Of a stretch of 64,000 bases of DNA, positions 4,078 through 63,378 are shown one piece after another. Location: the sequence record MZ189262.1. One strand, given 5' to 3'. The notes beneath the pieces were generated by a model that was not told where the DNA came from, did no database searches, and was given only the letters and a program-made list of their open reading frames with translations. The stretch comes from Escherichia phage W143. Numbering within the stretch: position 1 is the first letter of the stretch; each line of letters starts with the position of its first letter. Both the position numbers and the translations under genes were made by a program.

Positions 4078-4115
4078 AAGCCTTGTCGGGGTTCCACCTG
4101 CTAAGGCAAGTGTTT

Positions 4116-51301: not shown

Positions 51302-51779
51302 AGAAGTTTCTATTCCTAAAATGGGTCTTAAACATTATAACATTTTAAAAGATGTTAAAGGACCCGATGAAAATTTAAAACTTTTGATCGATTCTATTTG
51401 TCCAAATTTATCACCGGCAGAAGTTGATTTCGTTTCTATTCATTTATTGGAATTTAATGGAAAGATTAAATCTCGTAAAGAAATAGATGGTTATACTTAT
51501 GACATTAATGATGTTTATGTATGCCAAAGATTGGAATTTCAATACCAAGGAAATACATTTTATTTTAGACCTCCTGGAAAATTTGAACAATTTTTAACGG
51601 TGAGCGATATGTTATCCAAGTGCTTGCTTAAGGTCAATGATGAAGTTAAAGAAATTAATTTTCTTGAGATGCCAGCATTCGTTTTAAAATGGGCAAATGA
51701 TATTTTTACAACTTTAGCAATTCCTGGCCCTAATGGTCCAATAACCGGAATTGGCAATATTATTGGATTATTTGAATGA
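51246..51779 (+). CDS. 28: baseplate hub distal subunit gp28
   Basis: 177 aa; 56-nt overlap with the gene 27 end. Confidence 0.8.
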
Positions 51780-53548
51780 AAAAGCCACAAGAAATGCAAA
51801 CGATGCGTAGAAAAGTTATTTCAGATAATAAACCAACACAGGAAGCGGCTAAATCCGCTTCTAACACTTTATCTGGACTTAACGATATATCTACGAAATT
51901 GGATGATGCTCAAGCTGCTTCTGAATTAATTGCTCAAACTGTCGAAGAAAAATCGAATGAAATAATTGGAGCAATTGACAGTGTAGAAAGCGCAGTGAGT
52001 GATACTACTGCTGGTTCTGAGTTAATTGCTGAAACTGTCGAAATTGGCAATAATATTAATAAAGAAATCGGTGAATCACTCGGGAGCAAATTAGATAAAT
52101 TAACAAGTTTACTAGAGCAAAAAATTCAGACAGCTGGAATTCAACAGACTGGAACTAGTTTAGCCACAGTTGAAAGCGCTATTCCTGTTAAAGTTGTTGA
52201 GGATGATACAGCTGAATCTGTGGGTCCTTTATTACCGGCTCCTGAAGCAGTTAATAATGATCCTGATGCTGATTTTTTCCCTACCCCTCAGCCAGTTGAA
52301 CCCAAACAAGAATCACCAGAAGAAAAACAGAAAAAAGACGCATTTAACTTAAAATTATCTCAAGCTTTAGATAAATTAACGAAGACTGTTGATTTTGGAT
52401 TTAAGAAATCCATTTCAATTACTGATAAAATATCAAGCATGCTATTTAAGTATACCGTCAGTGCTGCTATTGAAGCTGCTAAAATGACTGCAATGATATT
52501 GGCTGTTGTTGTTGGAATAGACCTGTTAATGGTTCATTTCAAATATTGGTCAGATAAATTTTCGCAGGCTTGGGATTTGTTCAGTACAGACTTTACTAAA
52601 TTCTCTAGCGAAACCGGAACATGGGGTCCTTTATTACAGAGCATCTTTAGTTCTATTGATGAAATTAAAAAATTCTGGGAAGAGGGAGATTGGGGCGGTT
52701 TGACGGTAGCTATTGTAGAAGGGCTTGGAAAGGTTCTTTATAATTTAGGAGAACTTATTCAATTAGGTATGGCTAAATTATCTGCGGCAATTCTTCGAGT
52801 CATTCCTGGTATGAAGGATACTGCTGATGAAGTAGAAGGAAGAGCACTAGAAAATTTCCAAAATTCTACTGGAGCATCTCTCAATAAAGAAGACCAGGAA
52901 AAAGTTGCAAATTATCAAGATAAACGAATGAACGGAGACCTTGGTCCGATAGCAAAAGGATTAGATAAAATTGCTAATTGGAAAACTCGTGCATCTAACT
53001 GGATTCGTGGCGTTGATAATAAAGAAGCACTAACTACCGACGAAGAACGTGCAGCGGAAGAAGAAAAATTAAAGCAACTTTCACCTGAAGAAAGAAAAAA
53101 TGCTTTAATGAAGGCTAATGAAGCCCGCGCCGCAATGATTCGCTTTGAAAAATATGCTGATTCAGCTGATATGAGTAAAGACTCAACGGTTAAATCAGTT
53201 GAAGCTGCCTATGAAGACCTTAAAAAACGGATGGATGACCCGGATTTAAATAATTCACCGGCAGTTAAAAAAGAACTTGCTGCTAGATTTTCTAAAATTG
53301 ATGCTACTTATCAAGAGCTCAAGAAAAATCAGCCTAATGCCAAACCTGAAACTTCTGCTAAATCGCCAGAAGCAAAACAAGTCCAGGTAATAGAAAAGAA
53401 CAAAGCACAGCAAGCTCCTGTTCAACAAGCATCTCCTTCGATCAATAATACTAATAATGTTGTTAAGAAAAATACTGTCGTTCATAATATGACACCCGTA
53501 ACGAGCACGACTGCTCCTGGTGTATTTGACGCGACAGGAGTTAATTAA
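51776..53548 (+). CDS. 29: baseplate hub / tail length determinator (tape measure) gp29
   Basis: 590 aa. Confidence 0.85.
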   Translation: MKKPQEMQTMRRKVISDNKPTQEAAKSASNTLSGLNDISTKLDDAQAASELIAQTVEEKSNEIIGAIDSVESAVSDTTAGSELIAETVEIGNNINKEIGESLGSKLDKLTSLLEQKIQTAGIQQTGTSLATVESAIPVKVVEDDTAESVGPLLPAPEAVNNDPDADFFPTPQPVEPKQESPEEKQKKDAFNLKLSQALDKLTKTVDFGFKKSISITDKISSMLFKYTVSAAIEAAKMTAMILAVVVGIDLLMVHFKYWSDKFSQAWDLFSTDFTKFSSETGTWGPLLQSIFSSIDEIKKFWEEGDWGGLTVAIVEGLGKVLYNLGELIQLGMAKLSAAILRVIPGMKDTADEVEGRALENFQNSTGASLNKEDQEKVANYQDKRMNGDLGPIAKGLDKIANWKTRASNWIRGVDNKEALTTDEERAAEEEKLKQLSPEERKNALMKANEARAAMIRFEKYADSADMSKDSTVKSVEAAYEDLKKRMDDPDLNNSPAVKKELAARFSKIDATYQELKKNQPNAKPETSAKSPEAKQVQVIEKNKAQQAPVQQASPSINNTNNVVKKNTVVHNMTPVTSTTAPGVFDATGVN

Positions 53549-53556
53549 GGAATAAT

Positions 53557-54651
53557 ATGGTAATTGTTAAAGAAATAACTGCTGATTTAATTAAAAAGTC
53601 CGGTGAGAAAATTTCAGCCGGACAGAGTACTAAATCAGAAGTAGCAACTAAAACATACACTGCCCAGTTTCCAACTGGGCGTGCTAGTGGTAATGACACT
53701 ACAGGGGACTTCCAGGTAACAGATCTATATAAGAATGGATTATTATTTACTGCATACAATATGTCATCTAGGGATTCTGGAAGTCTTAGATCGATGAGAT
53801 CTAACTACTCTTCTTCATCTTCGAGTATTTTACGTACAGCCAGAAACACTATCAGTAATACAGTATCAAAACTGTCAAATGGATTAATATCAGATAATAA
53901 TTCAGGAACAATAAGTAAAGCACCTGTTGCAAATATTCTTTTACCAAGATCTAAATCAGATGTTGATACATCATCACATAGATTTAATGATGTTCAAGAA
54001 AGTCTTATCAGCAGAGGCGGAGGTACTGCTACTGGTGTGCTAAGTAATATTGCTTCAACTGCAGTATTTGGGGCACTGGAAAGTATAACACAAGGTATAA
54101 TGGCTGATAATAATGAACAGATTTATACGACAGCCAGAAGTATGTATGGTGGTGCTGAGAATAGAACTAAAGTGTTTACATGGGATTTGACTCCACGTTC
54201 CACAGAAGATTTAATGGCTATTATTAATATCTATCAATATTTTAACTATTTTTCTTATGGTGAAACTGGCAAATCTCAATATGCTGCTGAAATAAAGGGG
54301 TATTTAGATGATTGGTATCGTTCTACGTTAATTGAACCTTTATCTCCGGAAGACGCAGCTAAAAATAAAACACTATTTGAGAAAATGACATCGAGTTTAA
54401 CTAACGTTCTAGTAGTTTCAAACCCGACAATTTGGATGGTGAAAAACTTTGGTGCAACATCTAAGTTTGATGGAAAAACGGAAATATTTGGCCCATGCCA
54501 AATACAAAGCATCAGATTTGATAAAACGCCTAATGGTAACTTTAACGGATTAGCTATTGCTCCAAACCTCCCTAGTACATTTACTCTTGAGATTACTATG
54601 AGAGAAATTATCACGTTAAATCGTGCTTCTTTATATGCGGGGACTTTTTAA
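53557..54651 (+). CDS. 48: baseplate tail tube cap gp48
   Basis: 364 aa. Confidence 0.85.
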   Translation: MVIVKEITADLIKKSGEKISAGQSTKSEVATKTYTAQFPTGRASGNDTTGDFQVTDLYKNGLLFTAYNMSSRDSGSLRSMRSNYSSSSSSILRTARNTISNTVSKLSNGLISDNNSGTISKAPVANILLPRSKSDVDTSSHRFNDVQESLISRGGGTATGVLSNIASTAVFGALESITQGIMADNNEQIYTTARSMYGGAENRTKVFTWDLTPRSTEDLMAIINIYQYFNYFSYGETGKSQYAAEIKGYLDDWYRSTLIEPLSPEDAAKNKTLFEKMTSSLTNVLVVSNPTIWMVKNFGATSKFDGKTEIFGPCQIQSIRFDKTPNGNFNGLAIAPNLPSTFTLEITMREIITLNRASLYAGTF

Positions 54652-55616
54652 TGTATTCTTTAGAGGAATTTAATAATCAAGCAATAAACGCAGATTTCCA
54701 ACGTAATAATATGTTTAGCTGCGTTTTTGCGACAACTCCATCAACTAAAAGCTCTTCGTTGATAAGTTCAATTAGCAACTTTTCTTATAATAACTTGGGT
54801 CTAAATTCAGATTGGTTAGGATTGACTCAAGGCGATATTAATCAGGGAATTACCACGCTAATTACTGCTGGCACACAAAAACTGATAAGAAAATCAGGGG
54901 TTAGTAAATATCTTATTGGTGCCATGAGTCAACGTACAGTTCAAAGTTTATTGGGCTCATTTACAGTTGGTACATATTTAATTGACTTCTTTAACATGGC
55001 ATATAACTCATCTGGATTGATGATATATTCTGTAAAAATGCCAGAGAATAGATTATCCTATGAAACTGACTGGAACTATAATTCTCCTAATATTCGTATA
55101 ACTGGGAGAGAATTAGACCCTTTGGTTATTTCATTTAGAATGGATTCAGAAGCATGTAATTATCGTGCAATGCAAGACTGGGTTAACGCTGTTCAAGACC
55201 CAGTAACTGGATTGCGTGCTTTGCCACAAGATGTCGAGGCAGACATTCAGGTTAATCTTCACGCTCGTAATGGATTACCTCATACTGCGGTGATGTTCAC
55301 TGGATGCATTCCAGTGTCAGTGAGCGCTCCTGAGTTATCATATGATGGAGATAACCAAATAACTACATTTGATGTTACTTTTGCGTATAGAGTCATGCAG
55401 GCTGGGTCGGTTGATAGACAAGCTGCGCTTGAATGGCTTGAATCTGCTGCCATAAACGGTATTCAAAGCGTTCTCGGAAATAGTGGAGGTGTTACTGGAT
55501 TATCTAATTCGCTTTCACGACTTAGTAGATTAGGAGGAACTGCGGGAAGCATTTCAAACATTAATACCATGACAGGAATTGTCAATTCGCAAAGTAAAAT
55601 ATTAGGAGCAATATAA
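54651..55616 (+). CDS. 54: baseplate tail tube initiator gp54
   Basis: 321 aa. Confidence 0.85.
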   Translation: MYSLEEFNNQAINADFQRNNMFSCVFATTPSTKSSSLISSISNFSYNNLGLNSDWLGLTQGDINQGITTLITAGTQKLIRKSGVSKYLIGAMSQRTVQSLLGSFTVGTYLIDFFNMAYNSSGLMIYSVKMPENRLSYETDWNYNSPNIRITGRELDPLVISFRMDSEACNYRAMQDWVNAVQDPVTGLRALPQDVEADIQVNLHARNGLPHTAVMFTGCIPVSVSAPELSYDGDNQITTFDVTFAYRVMQAGSVDRQAALEWLESAAINGIQSVLGNSGGVTGLSNSLSRLSRLGGTAGSISNINTMTGIVNSQSKILGAI

Positions 55617-55620
55617 CAAT

Positions 55621-55638
55621 GGGGACCTTTCGGTCCCC
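55621..55638. terminator. bidirectional hairpin (ggggacc-tttc-ggtcccc) between convergent gene 54 and the alt-region genes
   Basis: perfect 7-bp stem flanked by T-tract on the plus side. Confidence 0.6.
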
Positions 55639-55644
55639 ATATTT

Positions 55645-55935
55645 TTATTTACGGAACGAAATAAAAGCAGCAACTGAAGCAACTAAACTGTCTTCAATAT
55701 AAACTTCAATTTTTACTGGAGCTTCTGACTCAAATTTACCTGTTACTACACCTTGGAAAATACTTTCAGTCTGCTCTGGCTTTGAAAAATTTTCAGAAGG
55801 AAAAATTCCGAACTTTTTATCTGTTCCAAAAATTTTGATAAATTCATCATAAACTGCTTCATTAAAAGCATTATCAGCAGGAATAACGCCTTCAACTACA
55901 AGTTCTTGACCTAAAAAGCGTAAAGAAGATTTCAT
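55645..55935 (-). CDS. hypothetical protein downstream of the Alt paralogues
   Basis: 96 aa ORF. Confidence 0.45.
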   Translation of the reverse strand: MKSSLRFLGQELVVEGVIPADNAFNEAVYDEFIKIFGTDKKFGIFPSENFSKPEQTESIFQGVVTGKFESEAPVKIEVYIEDSLVASVAAFISFRK

Positions 55936-55995
55936 TTTGTGTTCCTCATGTTATGTCAGTAAGACTACTATAACACAACACGAGGGACTTGTAAA

Positions 55996-58053
55996 CTACA
56001 TTTTGAACTTTTTAGACATTCCGTTGATGTTAACCAAAGAAGCCAAGATTTGAGAAACTTCGTTTTCCTCTTCTTTTGATTCTTCTACAAGGAATTGATT
56101 AAACCCAGTCATTGGACGAACTTCACCAGTTTCCATTAGATGGTCGCCATCATATACCGATTCTTCTAATTGTTCAGAAGGAGGAACGATTGTGCCTTCG
56201 ATTAGATACTTGTTATAAGCAGTTTCTTTCATCATGTACGTACTCACTTTATTAATCTTCAGCAAAATTCCACGTGGTAAAATAACTTCAGCTTCTGATG
56301 GAAATCCTGATAAATGACCTGGAACGATAACTTTGATTCGCTCAGCTCCTTTAATTACCATACCCACGCTAGTTTCAGCATCTTCATTCGCATAAGCAGA
56401 GTGACTGCCCATATGCATTAAATCTTCTGCATCAACTGAACCTTCTCCTTCACCAGAAAATACTGCGCCGGAATCATCTAGAGCCATATAGTTTTTACCA
56501 TACTCACCGAAGATATTTGGTTTAAGCGATGTGGATACGAAGTTCTTGAAGTAGAACATTTTATTTTCAATATTATGACGTAAAGTTTTAAAGGTAACTT
56601 CTTGCCCACGGTAAAGTGTAGTTCCTGGAGGAAGAACTGATCCTTTGGCAAAGGCAGAATCCATTGTCTCGATGTGTTTAATAGCTCGTTCCATATATTC
56701 TTCACGAGTAGAATCTGGTTTACCCAAAAGGAACGAGTTCATTTCAACATATGAATCTGCACAATAATCTTCAATTACATCGGACTCAGCCTGAGTTAAT
56801 CCTTTTGGGGGTACTTCAGTACTTGCATATTCATACGCTTGAGAAGCAGACTCATTAATCAATTTATAAATGCCATTCATGACAAATTGAATAATAGCTA
56901 CCTTTTCATCTGGCGTGGCTTTAGAACCTTTAACTAAATCATTGACAATTTTCTTAATAACATCAAAGCTATTAGAAATATTAATGTCAGCAAGATCGCT
57001 TAAAATTTTATCGGTTTTATAATCAAAGAATTCTTTATTCTTTAAATATTCTTGAGAACCTTGATATGTTATATCGTTCTGCAATCTGATAGACGGATCA
57101 CGTAAACGTGCATGGGCCAATGCAATATGATTTCGGAAGCTTTCTAGTTCATAATCGTTAGATTTAAAACGAGAAGCACTTCTCATACCACCGATAGCTC
57201 CTTTGCTGAAGTTTGAACCAATCTGAATAACGCCAGAGTTCATTGGTCCTTCTGCTTTATATACCGGAACTTTAGATTCAAACTCTTGATATTTCTTAGC
57301 AGCGAAGCTATCGCCCTGAAGTGAAGCATCGACAGTAGAGTATTGAGCTTGTGCTGCTAATCGACGACTAATTTTAGTTTTCTGAATAACAGCTTGATCC
57401 GTACGCTTATCATTTTCTAAAGCAATAGAAGCAGCAACAGCAACAGCTTTAGGAACAGCATTACCTGTTTTAACGTCTACATAAACATCACCAACCTTTG
57501 ATTCAACTTTTGTGAATAACTCAGTTGAAATAGGAGGTACACCTGGAATGTCTTCTAAATTGGCATTTTTACGGTAAACCATAATATATGCGTACTTTTT
57601 ATCGTAATCCCAGATTTCCTTTAAAAGAACATATCGACCTGCTCCTTTAGTACGTACTAAACGGTCAGCGATAACTTGCATTTGACGAGCTGCACCGTTT
57701 GTTTTACTCTTTAGTACGCGGAATAAGCATGCATCAATTTTATACTGTTTCATTGTCTGAAGAGCGGTATCAAAAACCGCATTAATGACACCAATTGGAT
57801 TTCCACCTAAGTTTTTAAGTTTAACTAATGATAGTTTCTCGTTGACACCTATCATTACGATATGCATCATTTTATCGCCTGGCTTAACGTTTTTGTTTGT
57901 ATCACCGCCAGAGGTGTATGTACAAAATCTAAATCCAGGAAGCACGCTTTCTTCACCGGCTTGAATAGCAAAAATTTGAGGTATTTTATGCTTAGGATTT
58001 AAGTTAACAACCGGCGCCGAAGCGCCGTCAAATAATTCTGTAATAAGTTCCAT
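55996..58053 (-). CDS. Alt-like ADP-ribosyltransferase, paralogue 1
   Basis: 685 aa; N-terminus MELITELFD...; C-terminal ART signature R (LYRGQ), S-T-S (FVSTSL), E-x-E (EAEVILPRG). Confidence 0.8.
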   Translation of the reverse strand: MELITELFDGASAPVVNLNPKHKIPQIFAIQAGEESVLPGFRFCTYTSGGDTNKNVKPGDKMMHIVMIGVNEKLSLVKLKNLGGNPIGVINAVFDTALQTMKQYKIDACLFRVLKSKTNGAARQMQVIADRLVRTKGAGRYVLLKEIWDYDKKYAYIMVYRKNANLEDIPGVPPISTELFTKVESKVGDVYVDVKTGNAVPKAVAVAASIALENDKRTDQAVIQKTKISRRLAAQAQYSTVDASLQGDSFAAKKYQEFESKVPVYKAEGPMNSGVIQIGSNFSKGAIGGMRSASRFKSNDYELESFRNHIALAHARLRDPSIRLQNDITYQGSQEYLKNKEFFDYKTDKILSDLADINISNSFDVIKKIVNDLVKGSKATPDEKVAIIQFVMNGIYKLINESASQAYEYASTEVPPKGLTQAESDVIEDYCADSYVEMNSFLLGKPDSTREEYMERAIKHIETMDSAFAKGSVLPPGTTLYRGQEVTFKTLRHNIENKMFYFKNFVSTSLKPNIFGEYGKNYMALDDSGAVFSGEGEGSVDAEDLMHMGSHSAYANEDAETSVGMVIKGAERIKVIVPGHLSGFPSEAEVILPRGILLKINKVSTYMMKETAYNKYLIEGTIVPPSEQLEESVYDGDHLMETGEVRPMTGFNQFLVEESKEEENEVSQILASLVNINGMSKKFKM

Positions 58054-58056
58054 GAT

Positions 58057-60114
58057 TTATCCTTGAACGAACTTGTAAGGCATGTTTGTAATATCTATGC
58101 AAGACGCAATAATTCCGAGAGATGATTCTGCTTTCTGTTTAACATTTGATGAAACAAATGATGCAAAGTCAACTCTGTCTTCTATTTCAATATCATCTGT
58201 CATTGCAACCAATTCACCAGTTTCCATTAGACGATCACCGTCATAAATTACCGATTCGGTGAGTTCTTCCGTAGTCATAACTTCAGCTTGAATAAGCTTG
58301 TTGTTAGTTTTAACTGTTCCATCATTGTAAGATGCATCGGTTATTTTATTAATTTTGACCATTAGTCCACGTGGCAAAATGACTTCCATTTCATTTGAAG
58401 GCGCTAAACTTCCACCGGGTAAAACAACATTGACTTTATCAGCTCCAGTAATAACCCATCCAATTCCAACTAAATTATCGCTAGAATTAACAAGCCCTTC
58501 ATCATTTTTATCGATAGAAATGCTTAGACGCTTTTCATCTGGTAAAACACCCACAGCTGAATCAGTCATCCAAGTACCAAAAATGTTTGGATATAATGAT
58601 GTTGATACAAAATTTCTAAAATAAAAAACTCGATTTTTTACCAATGCTTCATATATTGAAGGTAACATTCGCTGTGAACGATATAAAGTAATACCTTTTG
58701 GCAATCGATCACCATTTTTAAAGGCTGAATCTAAATTATCGATGGCTTGTTCTATTTCGGGTGCTGTCAAAATACTTGTACGCTCATCTGGATTATATAA
58801 TCCCAAAAGAGCATTATTCATGTCTACATATCCTGAACCCACATATTCACGAATTCCGCGTTTTTGAGCCGGTGTGTATTTAGATGAATCTTTATTTTCG
58901 ACTATAGAATGCAATGACCATCCAACGGTAAGAGCATATCCACGTAATTCTCTTCGAATAATCTTTGTTTTTATTGCATTCCAAGAATTTTGCACTAACT
59001 CATTTGCAGCATCTTGATTTAAATGCGAATGCTTGTTAATATTTCTTTCTAACCAAGCACTTTTATATTTTTCTAAAGTATCATCGACTATAGAAGCAAT
59101 AGTTTCTAAAGTTTTTATTGAAGTAATAGATTCTTTTCGTAATCTTTCTAAAGCTTTATTTTTTATTTCTGCATTAACATCAGATTCTTTATCTTCAGGA
59201 ATTATAGAAGCTTCTCTGAATGCCATTCCAGCTGTAACACTATTAAGAGCATTTTCTAATGCAAATCCTGAAGTAGAAATAACGGTTAATTCGTTAGCAT
59301 CAGAAATTAAAGGCGCGTCGGCGGGTTTATTTAATTCTGCTGCTGAAGCCTCAAATTTTTGAAACATTGGTGTTTCAAATCTAGAAGATTCCAATGACTG
59401 ACTTTGTGCAATTGCTCTACGTGAAATTTTAACTTTAACTATTACAGCCTGGTCAGAACGTTTATCGTTTTCTTGCGCAATAGATGCTGCAATTGCCTCA
59501 TTTTTAGTTACTTGAACCCCAGTATCTTTATTGATATAAACATCGCCGACTTTCGATTCAACTTTAGTAAAGAGCTCGGTACTAATTTCCGGAACTCCTG
59601 GAATGTCTTCTAGTGATACATTTTTGCGATGTATAAGAATATATGCATACTTTTTATCATAATCCCAGAGTTCCTTAAGAAGGACGTATCTGCCGCCTGA
59701 ACGACTACGGATAAGTCTATCAGCAATAACTTGAATTTGACGAGCTTGACCAGCAGTTTTAGACTTAAGAATACGAAGCATGCAGGCATCAATTTTATAC
59801 TGACGCATCGTCTGCATTGCAACAGTAAAAACTGAATTGATATAATTAATTGGGCTTGGACCGAGACCTTTCAATTTAGCAATTGAACCTTTAGCAGTTA
59901 ATGTAAAAGGAACAATATGCATCATTTTATCGCCCATTTTTAAATCGCGATTAGTATCACCTCCAGATGTATAGGTACATAAACGAAAGCCTGGTTGTTC
60001 AATTGCGTCATCAACATGAACTGAAAAAATTTGTGGTATTTTCTTCTTTGGATTTAAGTTTGTAATCGGAAGAGTAGTATCTTCGTCAAATAATTCTGTA
60101 ATAAGTTCCATCAT
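58057..60114 (-). CDS. alt: Alt ADP-ribosyltransferase (head-packaged), paralogue 2
   Basis: 685 aa; N-terminus MMELITELFDEDTTLPITNL...; ART signature R (LYRSQ), STS (FVSTSL), E-x-E (EMEVILPRG). Confidence 0.8.
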   Translation of the reverse strand: MMELITELFDEDTTLPITNLNPKKKIPQIFSVHVDDAIEQPGFRLCTYTSGGDTNRDLKMGDKMMHIVPFTLTAKGSIAKLKGLGPSPINYINSVFTVAMQTMRQYKIDACMLRILKSKTAGQARQIQVIADRLIRSRSGGRYVLLKELWDYDKKYAYILIHRKNVSLEDIPGVPEISTELFTKVESKVGDVYINKDTGVQVTKNEAIAASIAQENDKRSDQAVIVKVKISRRAIAQSQSLESSRFETPMFQKFEASAAELNKPADAPLISDANELTVISTSGFALENALNSVTAGMAFREASIIPEDKESDVNAEIKNKALERLRKESITSIKTLETIASIVDDTLEKYKSAWLERNINKHSHLNQDAANELVQNSWNAIKTKIIRRELRGYALTVGWSLHSIVENKDSSKYTPAQKRGIREYVGSGYVDMNNALLGLYNPDERTSILTAPEIEQAIDNLDSAFKNGDRLPKGITLYRSQRMLPSIYEALVKNRVFYFRNFVSTSLYPNIFGTWMTDSAVGVLPDEKRLSISIDKNDEGLVNSSDNLVGIGWVITGADKVNVVLPGGSLAPSNEMEVILPRGLMVKINKITDASYNDGTVKTNNKLIQAEVMTTEELTESVIYDGDRLMETGELVAMTDDIEIEDRVDFASFVSSNVKQKAESSLGIIASCIDITNMPYKFVQG

Positions 60115-60134: not shown

Positions 60135-60142
60135 TATTTATA
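60135..60142 (-). promoter_or_regulatory. late promoter TATAAATA (minus strand) for the alt genes
   Basis: plus TATTTATA ~20 nt upstream of the alt start at 60114. Confidence 0.55.
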
Positions 60143-60150
60143 AAATTAAA

Positions 60151-60162
60151 GGCCCGAAGGCC
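60151..60162 (-). terminator. GGCC-UUCG-GGCC hairpin with downstream T-tract on minus strand
   Basis: plus ggcccgaaggcc; on the minus strand followed by TTTAATTTT. Confidence 0.45.
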
Positions 60163-60163
60163 T

Positions 60164-60352
60164 TTAATAATCTATTGGTAAGAGAGTACGGTATATTTCA
60201 AACTTTGGACCTTTTTCATAGGCATCAAATGTTTCTGTGAATTTATTATAAGCATATGCATCTATAAATTCAATCATAATTTGTGATACAGAAGTAGAAA
60301 CATCTCCACCTTCTTTTTGAGCAACGACAATTGTTTCTAAGTAAGCTTTCAT
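60164..60352 (-). CDS. hypothetical small protein downstream of ligase
   Basis: 62 aa ORF overlapping the ligase stop. Confidence 0.4.
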   Translation of the reverse strand: MKAYLETIVVAQKEGGDVSTSVSQIMIEFIDAYAYNKFTETFDAYEKGPKFEIYRTLLPIDY

Positions 60353-61812
60353 AGACCAGTTACCTCATGAAAATCACCAAATACATCCTCGAATGTATTA
60401 GCTTTAGTTTTATCTTCACGTAAACGAATCGCAATCGGAAGAAATAATTTAACGTAATCAGTGCGGCCATCAGATTTTAACCAACCGTTGCATTCGCACT
60501 CTAGAATTTTTCCAATATAATAATTTTGGTTTTCCATAATGCGAGTACGGTCAAGTTCATGTGATTTTACACCGGCTTTATCTTTTAAGCCTGAACCAGC
60601 ATTTACTTTAATTTTTCCACACTCTGATTCAAGAATAAATCCACCTGCTTTAGTAGGGTCTTTACGGTGAGGATAAATTCCTACAATTTTTAAATCAACA
60701 TCAATTACTTCTTTAAATTTATAGAGATTTTTTGAACGAGCATTTTCCCATAATCCATCGATATTTTTGAGAATAATACCTTCAAGACCTTGGTCAATAT
60801 ACTTTTTATAAATTACCTTAGCTTCATCTAGGTTATTTACTAGCTGGTTTTCAATTAAAATTACTTTATCATATCCTGATGTCATTTGTTCTAGTTTAGA
60901 AAAACGTACATCATATTTTAAACGAAACGCCGGAAGACCGTATATTTCTACCAACGGGACATAATCCCAGACCTGAAACTTCATACATTGAGCTTCTTTT
61001 TCAGAAATGGTTCCTTTTAAAGATTTATTGGCGATTCCATTAGAAGTAGTACGAGATTCCGCTACTTCGGCGAATTCTTTAGCTTTACTAATTTCAGGAT
61101 AAGCATCAAAAAGAAAATCTAGGCCTTCTGGTTCCTTTTTAACTTGCTCATGGTATACCAATTCGCCATCAATTAACACGCCTTCTGGATGAATCTGGCG
61201 GGCTTCAGCAGTCATTTTGATTAACTCTTCCTTAAGAAGATCTAATCCTAGATATTCATTACCAGCTCGTGATAAAAGACGAACATCATCTAATTCATCA
61301 CCTCGGACTTCAGCAAAACACCGAGCTCCATCTGCTTTTAACTGTGCAAAAGCTGGAAACTTGATATTCTTACTAATGCCTTTTTCATCATAAGAACTTG
61401 CCAGCATTTGAGGTTGTTCAGGAATTAAACCTGGCCAAACTTTGTTTGCAATAGATACTGAAGCACCGCATTCAAGGTCTCGCATCATAACTCGACGTAA
61501 AACTTCAACATCATCCTTTTTACCATCAGTGATATATCCAGTTAATTCCTCAATTGCTGCATTTCCAGTCAATTTCCGAGTAGCTAACGTAAATTCAATA
61601 AAGTCAAGCATATCGGTAATGGTCAGCATTCCAAAACTCTGGGTAGCAATACCAGGCTTAGGCCATTTCTTGATATAATACTGTAACCCACGAGAATAAG
61701 TCAGACGATATACTCGTTTAAGCAATTCATTACCTTTATTCTTTTCAAGAATTGCTTGCTTCTGCTTAGTTGATCCAATAGATGCTATTTCATTCAGAAT
61801 TTTAAGAATCAT
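60349..61812 (-). CDS. 30: ATP-dependent DNA ligase
   Basis: 487 aa; adenylation motif KADGARCF. Confidence 0.9.
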   Translation of the reverse strand: MILKILNEIASIGSTKQKQAILEKNKGNELLKRVYRLTYSRGLQYYIKKWPKPGIATQSFGMLTITDMLDFIEFTLATRKLTGNAAIEELTGYITDGKKDDVEVLRRVMMRDLECGASVSIANKVWPGLIPEQPQMLASSYDEKGISKNIKFPAFAQLKADGARCFAEVRGDELDDVRLLSRAGNEYLGLDLLKEELIKMTAEARQIHPEGVLIDGELVYHEQVKKEPEGLDFLFDAYPEISKAKEFAEVAESRTTSNGIANKSLKGTISEKEAQCMKFQVWDYVPLVEIYGLPAFRLKYDVRFSKLEQMTSGYDKVILIENQLVNNLDEAKVIYKKYIDQGLEGIILKNIDGLWENARSKNLYKFKEVIDVDLKIVGIYPHRKDPTKAGGFILESECGKIKVNAGSGLKDKAGVKSHELDRTRIMENQNYYIGKILECECNGWLKSDGRTDYVKLFLPIAIRLREDKTKANTFEDVFGDFHEVTGL

Positions 61813-62078: not shown

Positions 62079-62917
62079 TAGAATGCTCCTTGAAAAATAT
62101 TATCACCACTAGTAGGTCTATTATACAAATACTCTATGCCACCAGGTTTAATATAGTTCCATGTCTGAAACGGATGTGTCTGATATGGATGATATAGATG
62201 ATTATAAGGATTTAATCCAGGCGTTCTCCAGGTAGTGTTCCAAGGAAAAGAATCGTTTTTAACCATCTTCTCAATTAAATCTTTTATAGCTTTTTCACTA
62301 TCAAAACTTTCTTTATTTTCCTTTAGTGAAAAAAGCTTATTTTCTACATCATTCCATGTATAAACTCGCTGCGCAGTTTTTGGAATATTGTCACGCTCTC
62401 CTCGAGCCATCCAATAAACTGGAACATTTAATATTTCACTCGCATGATCGCAGTGATGGGCGAGATCGTCAATATAACAAATTACGTTATATTTCTCTTT
62501 TGCCTTTTTGAACAGCTCTTCTTTTGAAGAATCATGACCACACATCATTACTTCTGAGAAGGCACCAGGAAAAAGAGCATTCAAATTAAATTGACGATTC
62601 AACAGAGCGTCAATAGAATCACCCAATGCTGTAACAGCTACAAAATTATAATCTTCTTTTAATTTGTTAATTACACACAGGGCATCTTTATATGGAGACA
62701 AGTAACGAATAAAATCTGATCGATTGTATTTTTCAATTAACTTGACACCAAGTTCTTCATCACAATTAAAGAGTTTACCTGGAGAAATAAATTTCTCATC
62801 TTGGATCATTTTTAAAATATGTTCTAACGGAAGATTATATTTCTGAGCAAAATAAGGAAGACCTGATTGCCAGCTTAAACATACTCCATCAATATCAGTT
62901 AAAATAGTAGGCTTCAT
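62078..62917 (-). CDS. HAD-superfamily hydrolase-like protein (30.2-like position)
   Basis: 279 aa; N-terminal DxDGV motif I (ILTDIDGV), later VAVTA and K...YIDD motifs. Confidence 0.55.
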   Translation of the reverse strand: MKPTILTDIDGVCLSWQSGLPYFAQKYNLPLEHILKMIQDEKFISPGKLFNCDEELGVKLIEKYNRSDFIRYLSPYKDALCVINKLKEDYNFVAVTALGDSIDALLNRQFNLNALFPGAFSEVMMCGHDSSKEELFKKAKEKYNVICYIDDLAHHCDHASEILNVPVYWMARGERDNIPKTAQRVYTWNDVENKLFSLKENKESFDSEKAIKDLIEKMVKNDSFPWNTTWRTPGLNPYNHLYHPYQTHPFQTWNYIKPGGIEYLYNRPTSGDNIFQGAF

Positions 62918-63378
62918 AGAGAGTCTCTTAATAGGTTTAACACATCAATAAATTCAGCTTCGGTTAGTATTGTATCATCTTTTGTTAGACCACTAGCCAT
63001 GCTGTGCTTCAAAACTTTTCCTTTCGAGGCTTGTAATGCATCGCGAAAGCCCTTGTTTTGGAACGCTGCTTCAAAATATGCATTTGTGTATAATTCTTTC
63101 CACGCTGGAGAGTATCTTGAAAATGGAACTCCAATCCAGAACAACGTGCCACGGTCCTGAGCTCTAGCGTAAGACCTTCCAGCTTGTTGGGCGGCAAGCC
63201 CGGATAACCCAAATATACGTCTTTGCTGTTCAACATTTTTCACCTTACATCCTTGGAGGAATCCTTCGAGACCTCCAAATTGGATACCATCCATAACAAA
63301 AGGCCATTGGGCGAAATTACTTAATGCACATGATGGCCATCTAAAATTGCTTCTTATCTCTAGCTCAGACATTTTCAA
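62914..63378 (-). CDS. NADAR (YbiA-like) domain protein (30.3-like position)
   Basis: 154 aa; LSNFAQWPFVMDGIQFGGLEGFLQGCK and AFQNKGFRDALQASKGKVLKHS resemble the NADAR/YbiA core as I recall it. Confidence 0.55.
   Translation of the reverse strand: MKMSELEIRSNFRWPSCALSNFAQWPFVMDGIQFGGLEGFLQGCKVKNVEQQRRIFGLSGLAAQQAGRSYARAQDRGTLFWIGVPFSRYSPAWKELYTNAYFEAAFQNKGFRDALQASKGKVLKHSMASGLTKDDTILTEAEFIDVLNLLRDSL

Follow-up and report, generated by a model that had tools for sequence, protein, structure and literature searches.

The region considered here lies in a 64,000-nucleotide stretch of the genome of Escherichia phage W143 (MZ189262.1), referred to below as the window, and contains two adjacent minus-strand genes, alt and alt2, that encode ADP-ribosyltransferases (ARTs) of the type represented by the Alt protein of phage T4. 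The two genes are paralogues, and alt is the orthologue of T4 alt. The source of the window is a Tequatrovirus (T-even phage) that has retained this old pair; its nearest matches in a phage collection are Tequatrovirus records with 95-97% nucleotide identity (97% for the top full-region match), and no record in the collection is identical. T4 retains only a deleted remnant of alt2, and the intact gene probably encodes a second enzyme that is injected together with Alt. The two reading frames and the parts of Alt2, given in amino acids (aa), are the following.

58057-60114, minus strand: open reading frame of alt, likely start at 60111
55996-58053, minus strand: alt2, intact, 685 aa
57340..58053, minus strand: N-terminal domain of Alt2, aa 1-238, PF26846 Tevenvirinae_ADPRT (precomputed Pfam)
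56809..57339, minus strand: central region of Alt2, aa 239-415, predicted to be all-helical
56161..56808, minus strand: ART catalytic domain of Alt2, aa 416-631, ending at the putative gp21 site L-E-E631/S632 (the slash marks the cleavage position)
55996..56160, minus strand: putative C-terminal propeptide of Alt2, aa 632-685, acidic (isoelectric point 4.6), with the stop codon

Alt and Alt2 align over their full length with 41% identity (BLASTP, E = 8e-158), and T4 Alt matches the alt product with 95.9% and Alt2 with 41% amino acid identity (E = 1e-157 for the latter). Both proteins match the Pfam family PF03496 (ADPrib_exo_Tox; E = 2e-34 and 119 bits for Alt, E = 3e-20 and 72.7 bits for Alt2, against a gathering cutoff of 23.4 bits) and, end to end, PHROG 802, 'Alt-like RNA polymerase ADP-ribosyltransferase' (E = 5e-263 for Alt and 3e-255 for Alt2). 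Close homologues of Alt2 carry precomputed Pfam hits to PF26846 together with PF03496, and Alt2 is 98% identical to a protein cluster with 772 members (P0001). NCBIfam holds no family for either protein.

The start codon of alt2 is located 3 nucleotides (nt) past the stop codon of alt and is preceded, 6 nt upstream, by an AAGGA Shine-Dalgarno motif. The alt reading frame opens with two successive ATG codons, and a GAGG Shine-Dalgarno motif is spaced 5 nt from the second of them, compared with 2 nt from the first; in view of this better spacing and of the T4 annotation, the Alt protein most likely comprises 684 aa and starts with MELITE. An earlier note on this DNA, made from the letters and a list of reading frames, had drawn attention to the identical length of 685 aa of the two products. 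This identity is a coincidence of open reading frame calling that stems from the extra in-frame ATG in alt, and length was rejected as a signal, the gene at the alt position encoding 682, 684 or 697 aa depending on the phage.

Identity between the two proteins amounts to 68% in the N-terminal 238 aa and falls to 13% in aa 239-415; it is 35% for the ART domain (aa 416-625, with the insert counted) and 44% for the C-terminal tail. The strong divergence of the middle that the earlier note had described is thus real, but the diverged stretch covers approximately 177 residues rather than the 300 that had been estimated. In addition, an insert of approximately 45-55 residues within the ART domain (aa 516-562) cannot be aligned between Alt and Alt2, and the loop that precedes the E-x-E motif reads LSGFPSEAE in Alt2 and SLAPSNEME in Alt.

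The catalytic R-S-E signature is intact in both proteins, and the codons of all its residues were verified at the following positions.

58678-58680, minus strand: R478 of Alt
58597-58605, minus strand: S503/S505 of Alt, within S503-T504-S505
58384-58392, minus strand: E574/E576 of Alt, within E574-x-E576
56608-56610, minus strand: R482 of Alt2
56527-56535, minus strand: S507/S509 of Alt2, within S507-T508-S509
56287-56295, minus strand: E587/E589 of Alt2, within E587-x-E589

Across 13 family members the arginine, both serines and both glutamates do not vary, and they reach at least 90% conservation among 60 representatives, a set in which the mean column identity is 25%. Inactivating substitutions in one of the paralogues, which had been raised as a possibility, are not present in the alignment in either triad, and the description of the locus as a pair of adjacent Alt paralogues with complete catalytic motifs holds. 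Both proteins have E-x-E, not Q-x-E (E-M-E in Alt, E-A-E in Alt2). Within the R-S-E clade, arginine is the acceptor associated with E-x-E, and asparagine the one associated with Q-x-E. The R and E-x-E motifs of Alt align opposite those of the Clostridioides difficile toxin CdtA in a phmmer search; sequence searches against PDB chains returned weak matches to CdtA and nothing else for Alt, and no match at E <= 0.01 for Alt2.

The C-terminal domain of Alt2 is an ART fold in its AlphaFold2 (AF2) model, which was built from a 13-sequence alignment (mean predicted local distance difference test score, pLDDT, 75.4; predicted template modelling score, pTM, 0.69), and the top structural match of the predicted model is the arginine-specific Vis. 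The layout of the model comprises an alpha/beta N-domain (block-mean pLDDT approximately 68-88 outside the first 10 residues), an all-helical middle, the ART domain and a low-confidence tail past residue 630 (pLDDT below 50 for aa 630-685). When the AF2 models of Alt and Alt2 are compared by their secondary-structure strings, the middle is all-helical in both and the helix positions match closely despite the 13% identity, which suggests that one ancestral helical domain has diverged and that it was not replaced by an unrelated sequence.

The comparison with T4, which the earlier note had proposed, reveals that the model phage lacks an intact pair and has only alt and fragments. Between alt and alt.-3 the T4 genome contains two small open reading frames, alt.-1 and alt.-2, which the T4 record calls 'an old duplication of the first part of gene alt'. 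However, T4 alt.-1 is 94.6% identical to aa 1-56 of Alt2 and alt.-2 is 98.2% identical to aa 62-116, compared with only approximately 60% identity to Alt itself. In a blastn alignment, T4 and the window are collinear on both sides of the missing segment, which is:

56016..57705: part of alt2 that is deleted in T4, approximately 1.69 kb (1690 bp)

A 1-bp deletion, and hence a frameshift, separates alt.-1 from alt.-2 in T4; the junction of the large deletion falls within a CT(T/C)TTTAG microhomology (approximately 4105-4113 in the T4 locus, L001), and the tail of T4 alt.-2, KCSLQVPRVVL and stop, results when the final codons of alt2 and the 3' flank are read out of frame. T4 reached its present state by deletion, and the DNA alignment with the window indicates that T4 holds the wreck of a full-length paralogue and not a duplication of the first part of alt only. 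In the window, alt2 has neither the frameshift nor the deletion, and its uninterrupted 685-aa reading frame contains the 1690 bp that are absent from T4.

The identical junction is found in 90 records, among them RB55, RB59, ACG-C40, HY03 and SG1, which points to one natural, lineage-defining event and not to recurrent decay. A laboratory artefact in T4 was considered as a source of the deletion and rejected, the same junction being present in many independently named phages with varied hosts. The segment that is missing from T4 is present, with 94-98% nucleotide identity and at least 80% coverage, in 401 phage records, T2 included, and the gene at the alt2 position encodes 685 aa at the same place in all four loci that were read (T2, AR1, ZN18 and RB27). 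Thus, the intact pair is the majority state in Tequatrovirus, found in about 80% of the close relatives of T4.

It should be noted that the gene pair is already known at the level of annotation, and the window is one more instance of it and not a discovery. Existing labels include 'Alt-like RNA polymerase ADP-ribosyltransferase' twice per genome, 'alt.-2' (RB27) and 'ADP-ribosyltransferase Alt2' (BASEL phage AdolfPortmann, locus tag bas44_0032); the annotated Alt2 of T2, RB27, AR1, the BASEL phages and several hundred Tequatrovirus records is the same gene at the same position, and nothing material differs. In 2006, Nolan et al. included alt.-1 and alt.-2 in their list, together with full-length alt duplicates in 44RR and RB49 (PMC1524935), and Jin et al. 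(2014) reported alt duplications in JS98, Bp7, Ac42 and ZZ1 (PMC4177764). These phages share with the window the tandem or multiple Alt-like genes near the baseplate/ligase region, but they belong to other genera and have other copy numbers, and the ZZ1 gene is split. A literature search on alt.-1/alt.-2, Alt2 and the virion proteomics of Tequatrovirus or T2 found no work on the second copy, either functional or proteomic; proteomics of Klebsiella phages detected a single ART in virions, yet those phages have one copy.

Several observations bear on whether alt2 is a working gene. Among the window, T2, AR1, ZN18 and RB27, its reading frame is uninterrupted and its ratio of nonsynonymous to synonymous substitutions (dN/dS) is 0.044-0.051 at dS values of 0.10-0.26, which matches the bottom of the range for alt within one type (0.048-0.094); alt2 is under purifying selection. 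Experimental data are available for phage Bas37, in which an 'Alt2' gene (bas37_0032, 2058 nt) lies directly downstream of 'Alt' (bas37_0033, 2097 nt), and judging from its length and position this gene is probably the orthologue of the window alt2. Transposon sequencing (HIDEN-SEQ) on Escherichia coli K-12 scored Bas37 Alt2 as 'Intermediate', with 116/164 TA sites hit and a mean count of 44.5 per site, and Alt as 'Non-essential', with 164/179 TA sites hit and a mean count of 203.6 per site (10.1101/2025.11.20.689424).

Signals that bear on the expression and processing of the two genes are located at the following positions.

60135..60142, minus strand: T4-type late promoter core TATAAATA, approximately 23 nt upstream of the alt start
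60094-60096, minus strand: putative gp21-site glutamate E6 of Alt
58255-58257, minus strand: putative gp21-site glutamate E619 of Alt
58036-58038, minus strand: putative gp21-site glutamate E6 of Alt2, before L7
56161-56163, minus strand: putative gp21-site glutamate E631 of Alt2

In the 49.4-64 kb part of the window that was scanned, the exact match to TATAAATA is the only one; it lies upstream of alt, and alt2 is without an exact match of its own there. The terminator scan reported no terminator-like site between alt and alt2, and because of this and the gap of only 3 nt, the two genes are probably co-transcribed.

In T4, gp21 cleaves Alt at ITE-6 and LTE-619, and the removal of 6 N-terminal and 63 C-terminal residues generates a mature protein of 68.2 kDa (Ali et al. 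2017, PMC5694885). The aligned positions read I-T-E6/L and L-T-E619/S in Alt and I-T-E6/L and L-E-E631/S in Alt2, so that the L-I-T-E motif that had been noticed in both N-termini as a plausible gp21 site is the one mapped experimentally in T4 Alt. Neither E6 nor E619/E631 varies in the 13-member alignment, and in the 60 representatives these glutamates are at least 90% conserved; S632 of Alt2 is conserved in at least 90% of sequences. Cleavage at these positions would result in mature proteins with predicted masses of 68.3 kDa (Alt) and 69.2 kDa (Alt2). In both proteins, the tail past the C-terminal site is acidic and has been modelled as disordered; the Alt2 tail is a homologue of the stretch of 63 residues that T4 Alt loses on gp21 cleavage.

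The distribution of the parts of these proteins in other phages offers a view of the history of the family. In an exhaustive search with the Alt2 N-domain (aa 1-237), 69 clusters at 50% identity were found among 1.84 billion representatives, with the domain always in N-terminal position in the matched proteins; PF03496 was present in 57 of the 60 members that were scanned, and other Pfam families in none. The idea that the Alt N-domain is a general delivery module for diverse effectors was therefore rejected. With tblastn the domain was found at 1816 places in 1201 phage records, with two copies in Tequatroviruses, Merlin, dhaeg and SP18, three in PspYZU05 and one in most other listed records.

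The alt position itself is polymorphic in Tequatrovirus, with a T4-type allele of 682-684 aa and a T2-type allele of 697 aa in T2, ZN18 and RB27:

Loci L002, L004, L005, 5242-7335: T2-type alt allele

The N-terminal approximately 245 and C-terminal approximately 60 residues of the two types are almost identical, but the middle-plus-ART cassettes differ (33% and 65% identity). At least 80% of the window alt gene is covered in 174 of 499 matching records, with a coverage of 55-60% in the listed remainder and of 28% in one. In neighbour-joining trees, the ART domain of Alt2 falls together with the Alts of JS10 and KM16-type phages, apart from a clade that comprises the T4-type and T2-type alt cassettes, and the N-domains cluster by genome; both the middle and the ART domain of Alt2 are closer to the JS10/KM16 Alt, from other groups, than to the neighbouring Alt. 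The domain trees thus argue for an old paralogy with an N-domain that the phage's own head keeps constrained, or homogenised within the genome, and a recent local duplication fits them less well. The designation of the locus as a tandem duplication is accordingly correct insofar as the two genes are a paralogous tandem pair, but a simple, recent in-place duplication followed by divergence is unsupported.

In some metagenome-derived contigs, a hybrid single gene occupies the place between alt.1 and alt.-3.

L007, 4001-6061 (ENA ERZ27282683 k99_7153): hybrid alt/alt2 gene
L008, 4001-6061 (Logan SRR19633722): hybrid alt/alt2 gene

The hybrid proteins (P0003, P0004, P0006 and P0007) are of the alt type, with 100% identity, up to approximately aa 45, 105, 180 or 222, and of the alt2 type thereafter. 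They look like the products of independent unequal crossovers between the tandem N-domains, by which the effector part of alt was deleted, or else they may be assembly chimeras. There are further odd entries, namely truncated or split proteins (P0005, P0008 and P0010) and phage sb4, which is annotated with four ART coding sequences.

The pair is embedded in the baseplate/ligase part of the T-even genome, and the order ligase - alt.1 - alt - alt2 - alt.-3 - gp54 is the same in T4, T2, AR1, ZN18 and RB27. The flanking features are listed below.

51776-53548, plus strand: gp29
53557-54651, plus strand: gp48
54651-55616, plus strand: gp54
55619-55640: bidirectional terminator (promoter and terminator scan)
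55645-55935, minus strand: alt.-3, downstream neighbour, 96 aa, DUF5498 (Pfam PF17602, E = 1e-64)
55995..55967: sigma-70-like promoter TTTACA-17-TATAGT, directly past the alt2 stop (promoter scan)
60143-60163, minus strand: GC-rich hairpin AAAGGCC-TTCG-GGCCTTT with a UUCG-type loop, directly separating the alt.1 stop from the alt late promoter
60164-60352, minus strand: alt.1, upstream neighbour, 62 aa, Pfam PF24647 'Phage blade protein' (E = 7.5e-29)
60349-61812, minus strand: DNA ligase gp30
62914-63378, minus strand: homologue of gp30.3 (Pfam PF08010, E = 2e-69)

The hairpin at 60143-60163 was not reported by the terminator scan, probably owing to its short T-run. The alt.1 product also matches PHROG 1976, a family annotated as being of unknown function. 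The alt.-3 protein has the same sequence as T4 Alt.-3, of which mutants with a C-terminal extension escape the CmdTAC defence system (PMC11618068), and the alt.-3 homologue of Bas37, bas37_0031, is conditionally depleted on E. coli CFT073 (log2 fold change -2.70, adjusted p 0.02; 10.1101/2025.11.20.689424). T4 30.3/adfN is an enzyme, grouped with NADAR proteins, that reverses the ADP-ribosylation of DNA by DarT (10.1101/2025.11.20.689424), and thus three genes that are related to ADP-ribose, alt, alt2 and 30.3, are found within approximately 7.5 kb.

Among known systems, T4 Alt is the closest counterpart of Alt2, which shares its whole architecture, including the N-domain, helical middle, R-S-E ART domain and both gp21-site glutamates, but differs from it in the degree of divergence described above and in the insert and the loop before E-x-E. 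The alt.-1/alt.-2 remnant corresponds to alt2 in locus and sequence, but it is broken in T4 and intact in the window. T4 ModA and ModB are likewise phage R-S-E ARTs, with host proteins of transcription and translation as their targets. These small early proteins are made after infection and are not packaged, and they were not matched in searches seeded with the Alt2 N-terminal domain. The C3, VIP2, iota, CDTa and Vis toxins share PF03496 with Alt2, but they rely on secretion or binary-toxin translocation, do not enter a phage head and have no Alt N-domain. The internal proteins IPI-IPIII of T4 resemble the delivery proposed for Alt2, in that they are placed in the prohead core, cleaved by gp21 after [LI]-x-E and ejected with the DNA; however, they are unrelated small proteins with an N-terminal targeting propeptide of 10-20 residues, compared with the 6-residue N-propeptide and additional C-terminal propeptide of Alt-type proteins (PMC5694885).

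Taken together, it is rather probable that Alt2 is a second arginine ART which is packed into the head, trimmed by gp21 and injected, with a range of targets unlike that of Alt, although its packaging and its targets are what we infer and not what has been observed. Each protein consists of four parts, a conserved N-domain, a fast-diverging helical middle, a catalytic domain of the C3/VIP2/Vis type with the R-S-E residues and the E-x-E motif, and an acidic C-terminal tail. Late in infection, both genes would be read from the one late promoter, which lies upstream of alt, and both proteins would enter the prohead by virtue of common features of the N-terminus and/or the propeptides. There, gp21 would trim them after E6 and after L-x-E/S (E619 in Alt, E631 in Alt2), resulting in enzymes of approximately 68 and 69 kDa that would be injected along with the DNA. 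Each enzyme would then mono-ADP-ribosylate its own set of host proteins. For Alt, the targets would include Arg265 in the alpha subunit of RNA polymerase among others, a modification that is known for the T4 protein (PMC2988021), and the set of Alt2 may be partly or wholly different, as specified by its own middle domain, ART insert and pre-E-x-E loop. Variants of Alt are indeed not interchangeable, since T4 Alt restores growth on a host with Mokosh type I, whereas the Alt variant of Bas37 does not (10.1101/2025.11.20.689424). Co-transcription, packaging, cleavage and injection of Alt2 are well motivated by the shared signals, and its enzymatic activity and distinct targets are suggested by its sequence. 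The proposal that Alt2 is a second virion-delivered, arginine-specific ART whose host targets or anti-defence role are distinct from those of Alt is put forward tentatively.

Several points weigh against this proposal. The motif [LI]-x-E is short and occurs 7-8 times per protein, and the two sites that we propose were singled out by positional conservation; the capsid-targeting role of the 6-residue N-terminal propeptide is putative. Virion proteomics, cleavage mapping and enzymology of Alt2 were not found in the literature. Neither effector is indispensable, as can be seen from the T4 clade of 90 records without alt2 and from the hybrids without the body of alt. The distinct targets are suggested solely by sequence divergence, which could instead reflect escape from recognition by the host. 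The structure models are of moderate confidence, with 13 sequences beneath them. Finally, the low transposon tolerance of Bas37 alt2 could be caused by toxic truncated products instead of a loss of function.

Other explanations must be weighed against the same observations. If Alt2 were redundant with Alt, sharing its packaging, injection and targets and serving to raise the dose or as a backup, it would not be surprising that the N-domain, catalytic motifs and cleavage-site residues are common to both proteins, that T4 does well without alt2 and that natural hybrids lack the effector part of alt; moreover, the ARTs of T4 already overlap, Alt and ModA both modifying alpha Arg265 (PMC2988021). 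However, ART domains and middles that are only 35% and 13% identical, with differing inserts and pre-E-x-E loops, speak against a common set of targets, and strong purifying selection on both genes within each type would be unusual for a pure backup at such a divergence. Together with the failure of Alt variants to substitute for each other against Mokosh type I and the difference in transposon tolerance between alt2 and alt of Bas37, this makes mere redundancy unlikely. A role as an active ART outside the virion, exerted late in the producing cell on host or phage proteins or against defence systems, with the conserved termini put to another use, would be in accordance with the lack of literature evidence for Alt2 in virions, with the precedent of ModA and ModB, which work from within the cell, and with the lower insertion tolerance on plain K-12. 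It would leave unexplained, however, why the N-domain is 68% identical to that of the packaged Alt and essentially confined to Alt-type proteins, why both gp21-site glutamates are conserved throughout the family, and why alt2 is located behind the late promoter of alt with no exact match of its own; the natural chimeras of alt and alt2 N-segments, which stay intact, also suggest that these segments are equivalent. A purely intracellular role is thus quite improbable.

The view that alt2 is a non-functional duplicate in decay towards the T4 state has the least in its favour. T4 and 89 other records do carry a deleted and frameshifted version, and truncated or split entries and the four ART coding sequences of sb4 can be cited in its support. 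Nevertheless, the T4-type records share one junction and thus represent a single event, 401 records hold the segment at 80% coverage or more, every catalytic residue is intact, and a dN/dS of approximately 0.045-0.05 with a complete 685-aa reading frame in 5/5 genomes essentially excludes decay; the pseudogene was rejected on these grounds as highly improbable. All three alternatives rank below the interpretation of Alt2 as a second injected ART with targets of its own.

What is known of injected phage ARTs comes almost entirely from T4, which belongs to a minority lineage (approximately 90 records with the deletion, compared with approximately 400 that keep the segment), and the addition made here is that this model phage retains only a deleted remnant of an ancestral, probably injected enzyme that its relatives have kept. 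If the proposed role of Alt2 is correct, the T4-based picture of three ARTs (Alt, ModA and ModB) understates the usual repertoire of T-even phages. The alt locus would then be a modular effector site, in which a shared packaging N-domain and C-propeptide are combined with exchangeable middle-plus-ART cassettes, at least three of which (T4-type alt, T2-type alt and alt2) are shuffled or deleted by recombination. Moreover, should Alt2 be packaged and have targets of its own, the majority of T-even phages would introduce two different enzymes during the first seconds of infection, and work on host takeover or anti-defence that is confined to T4 would miss one of them.

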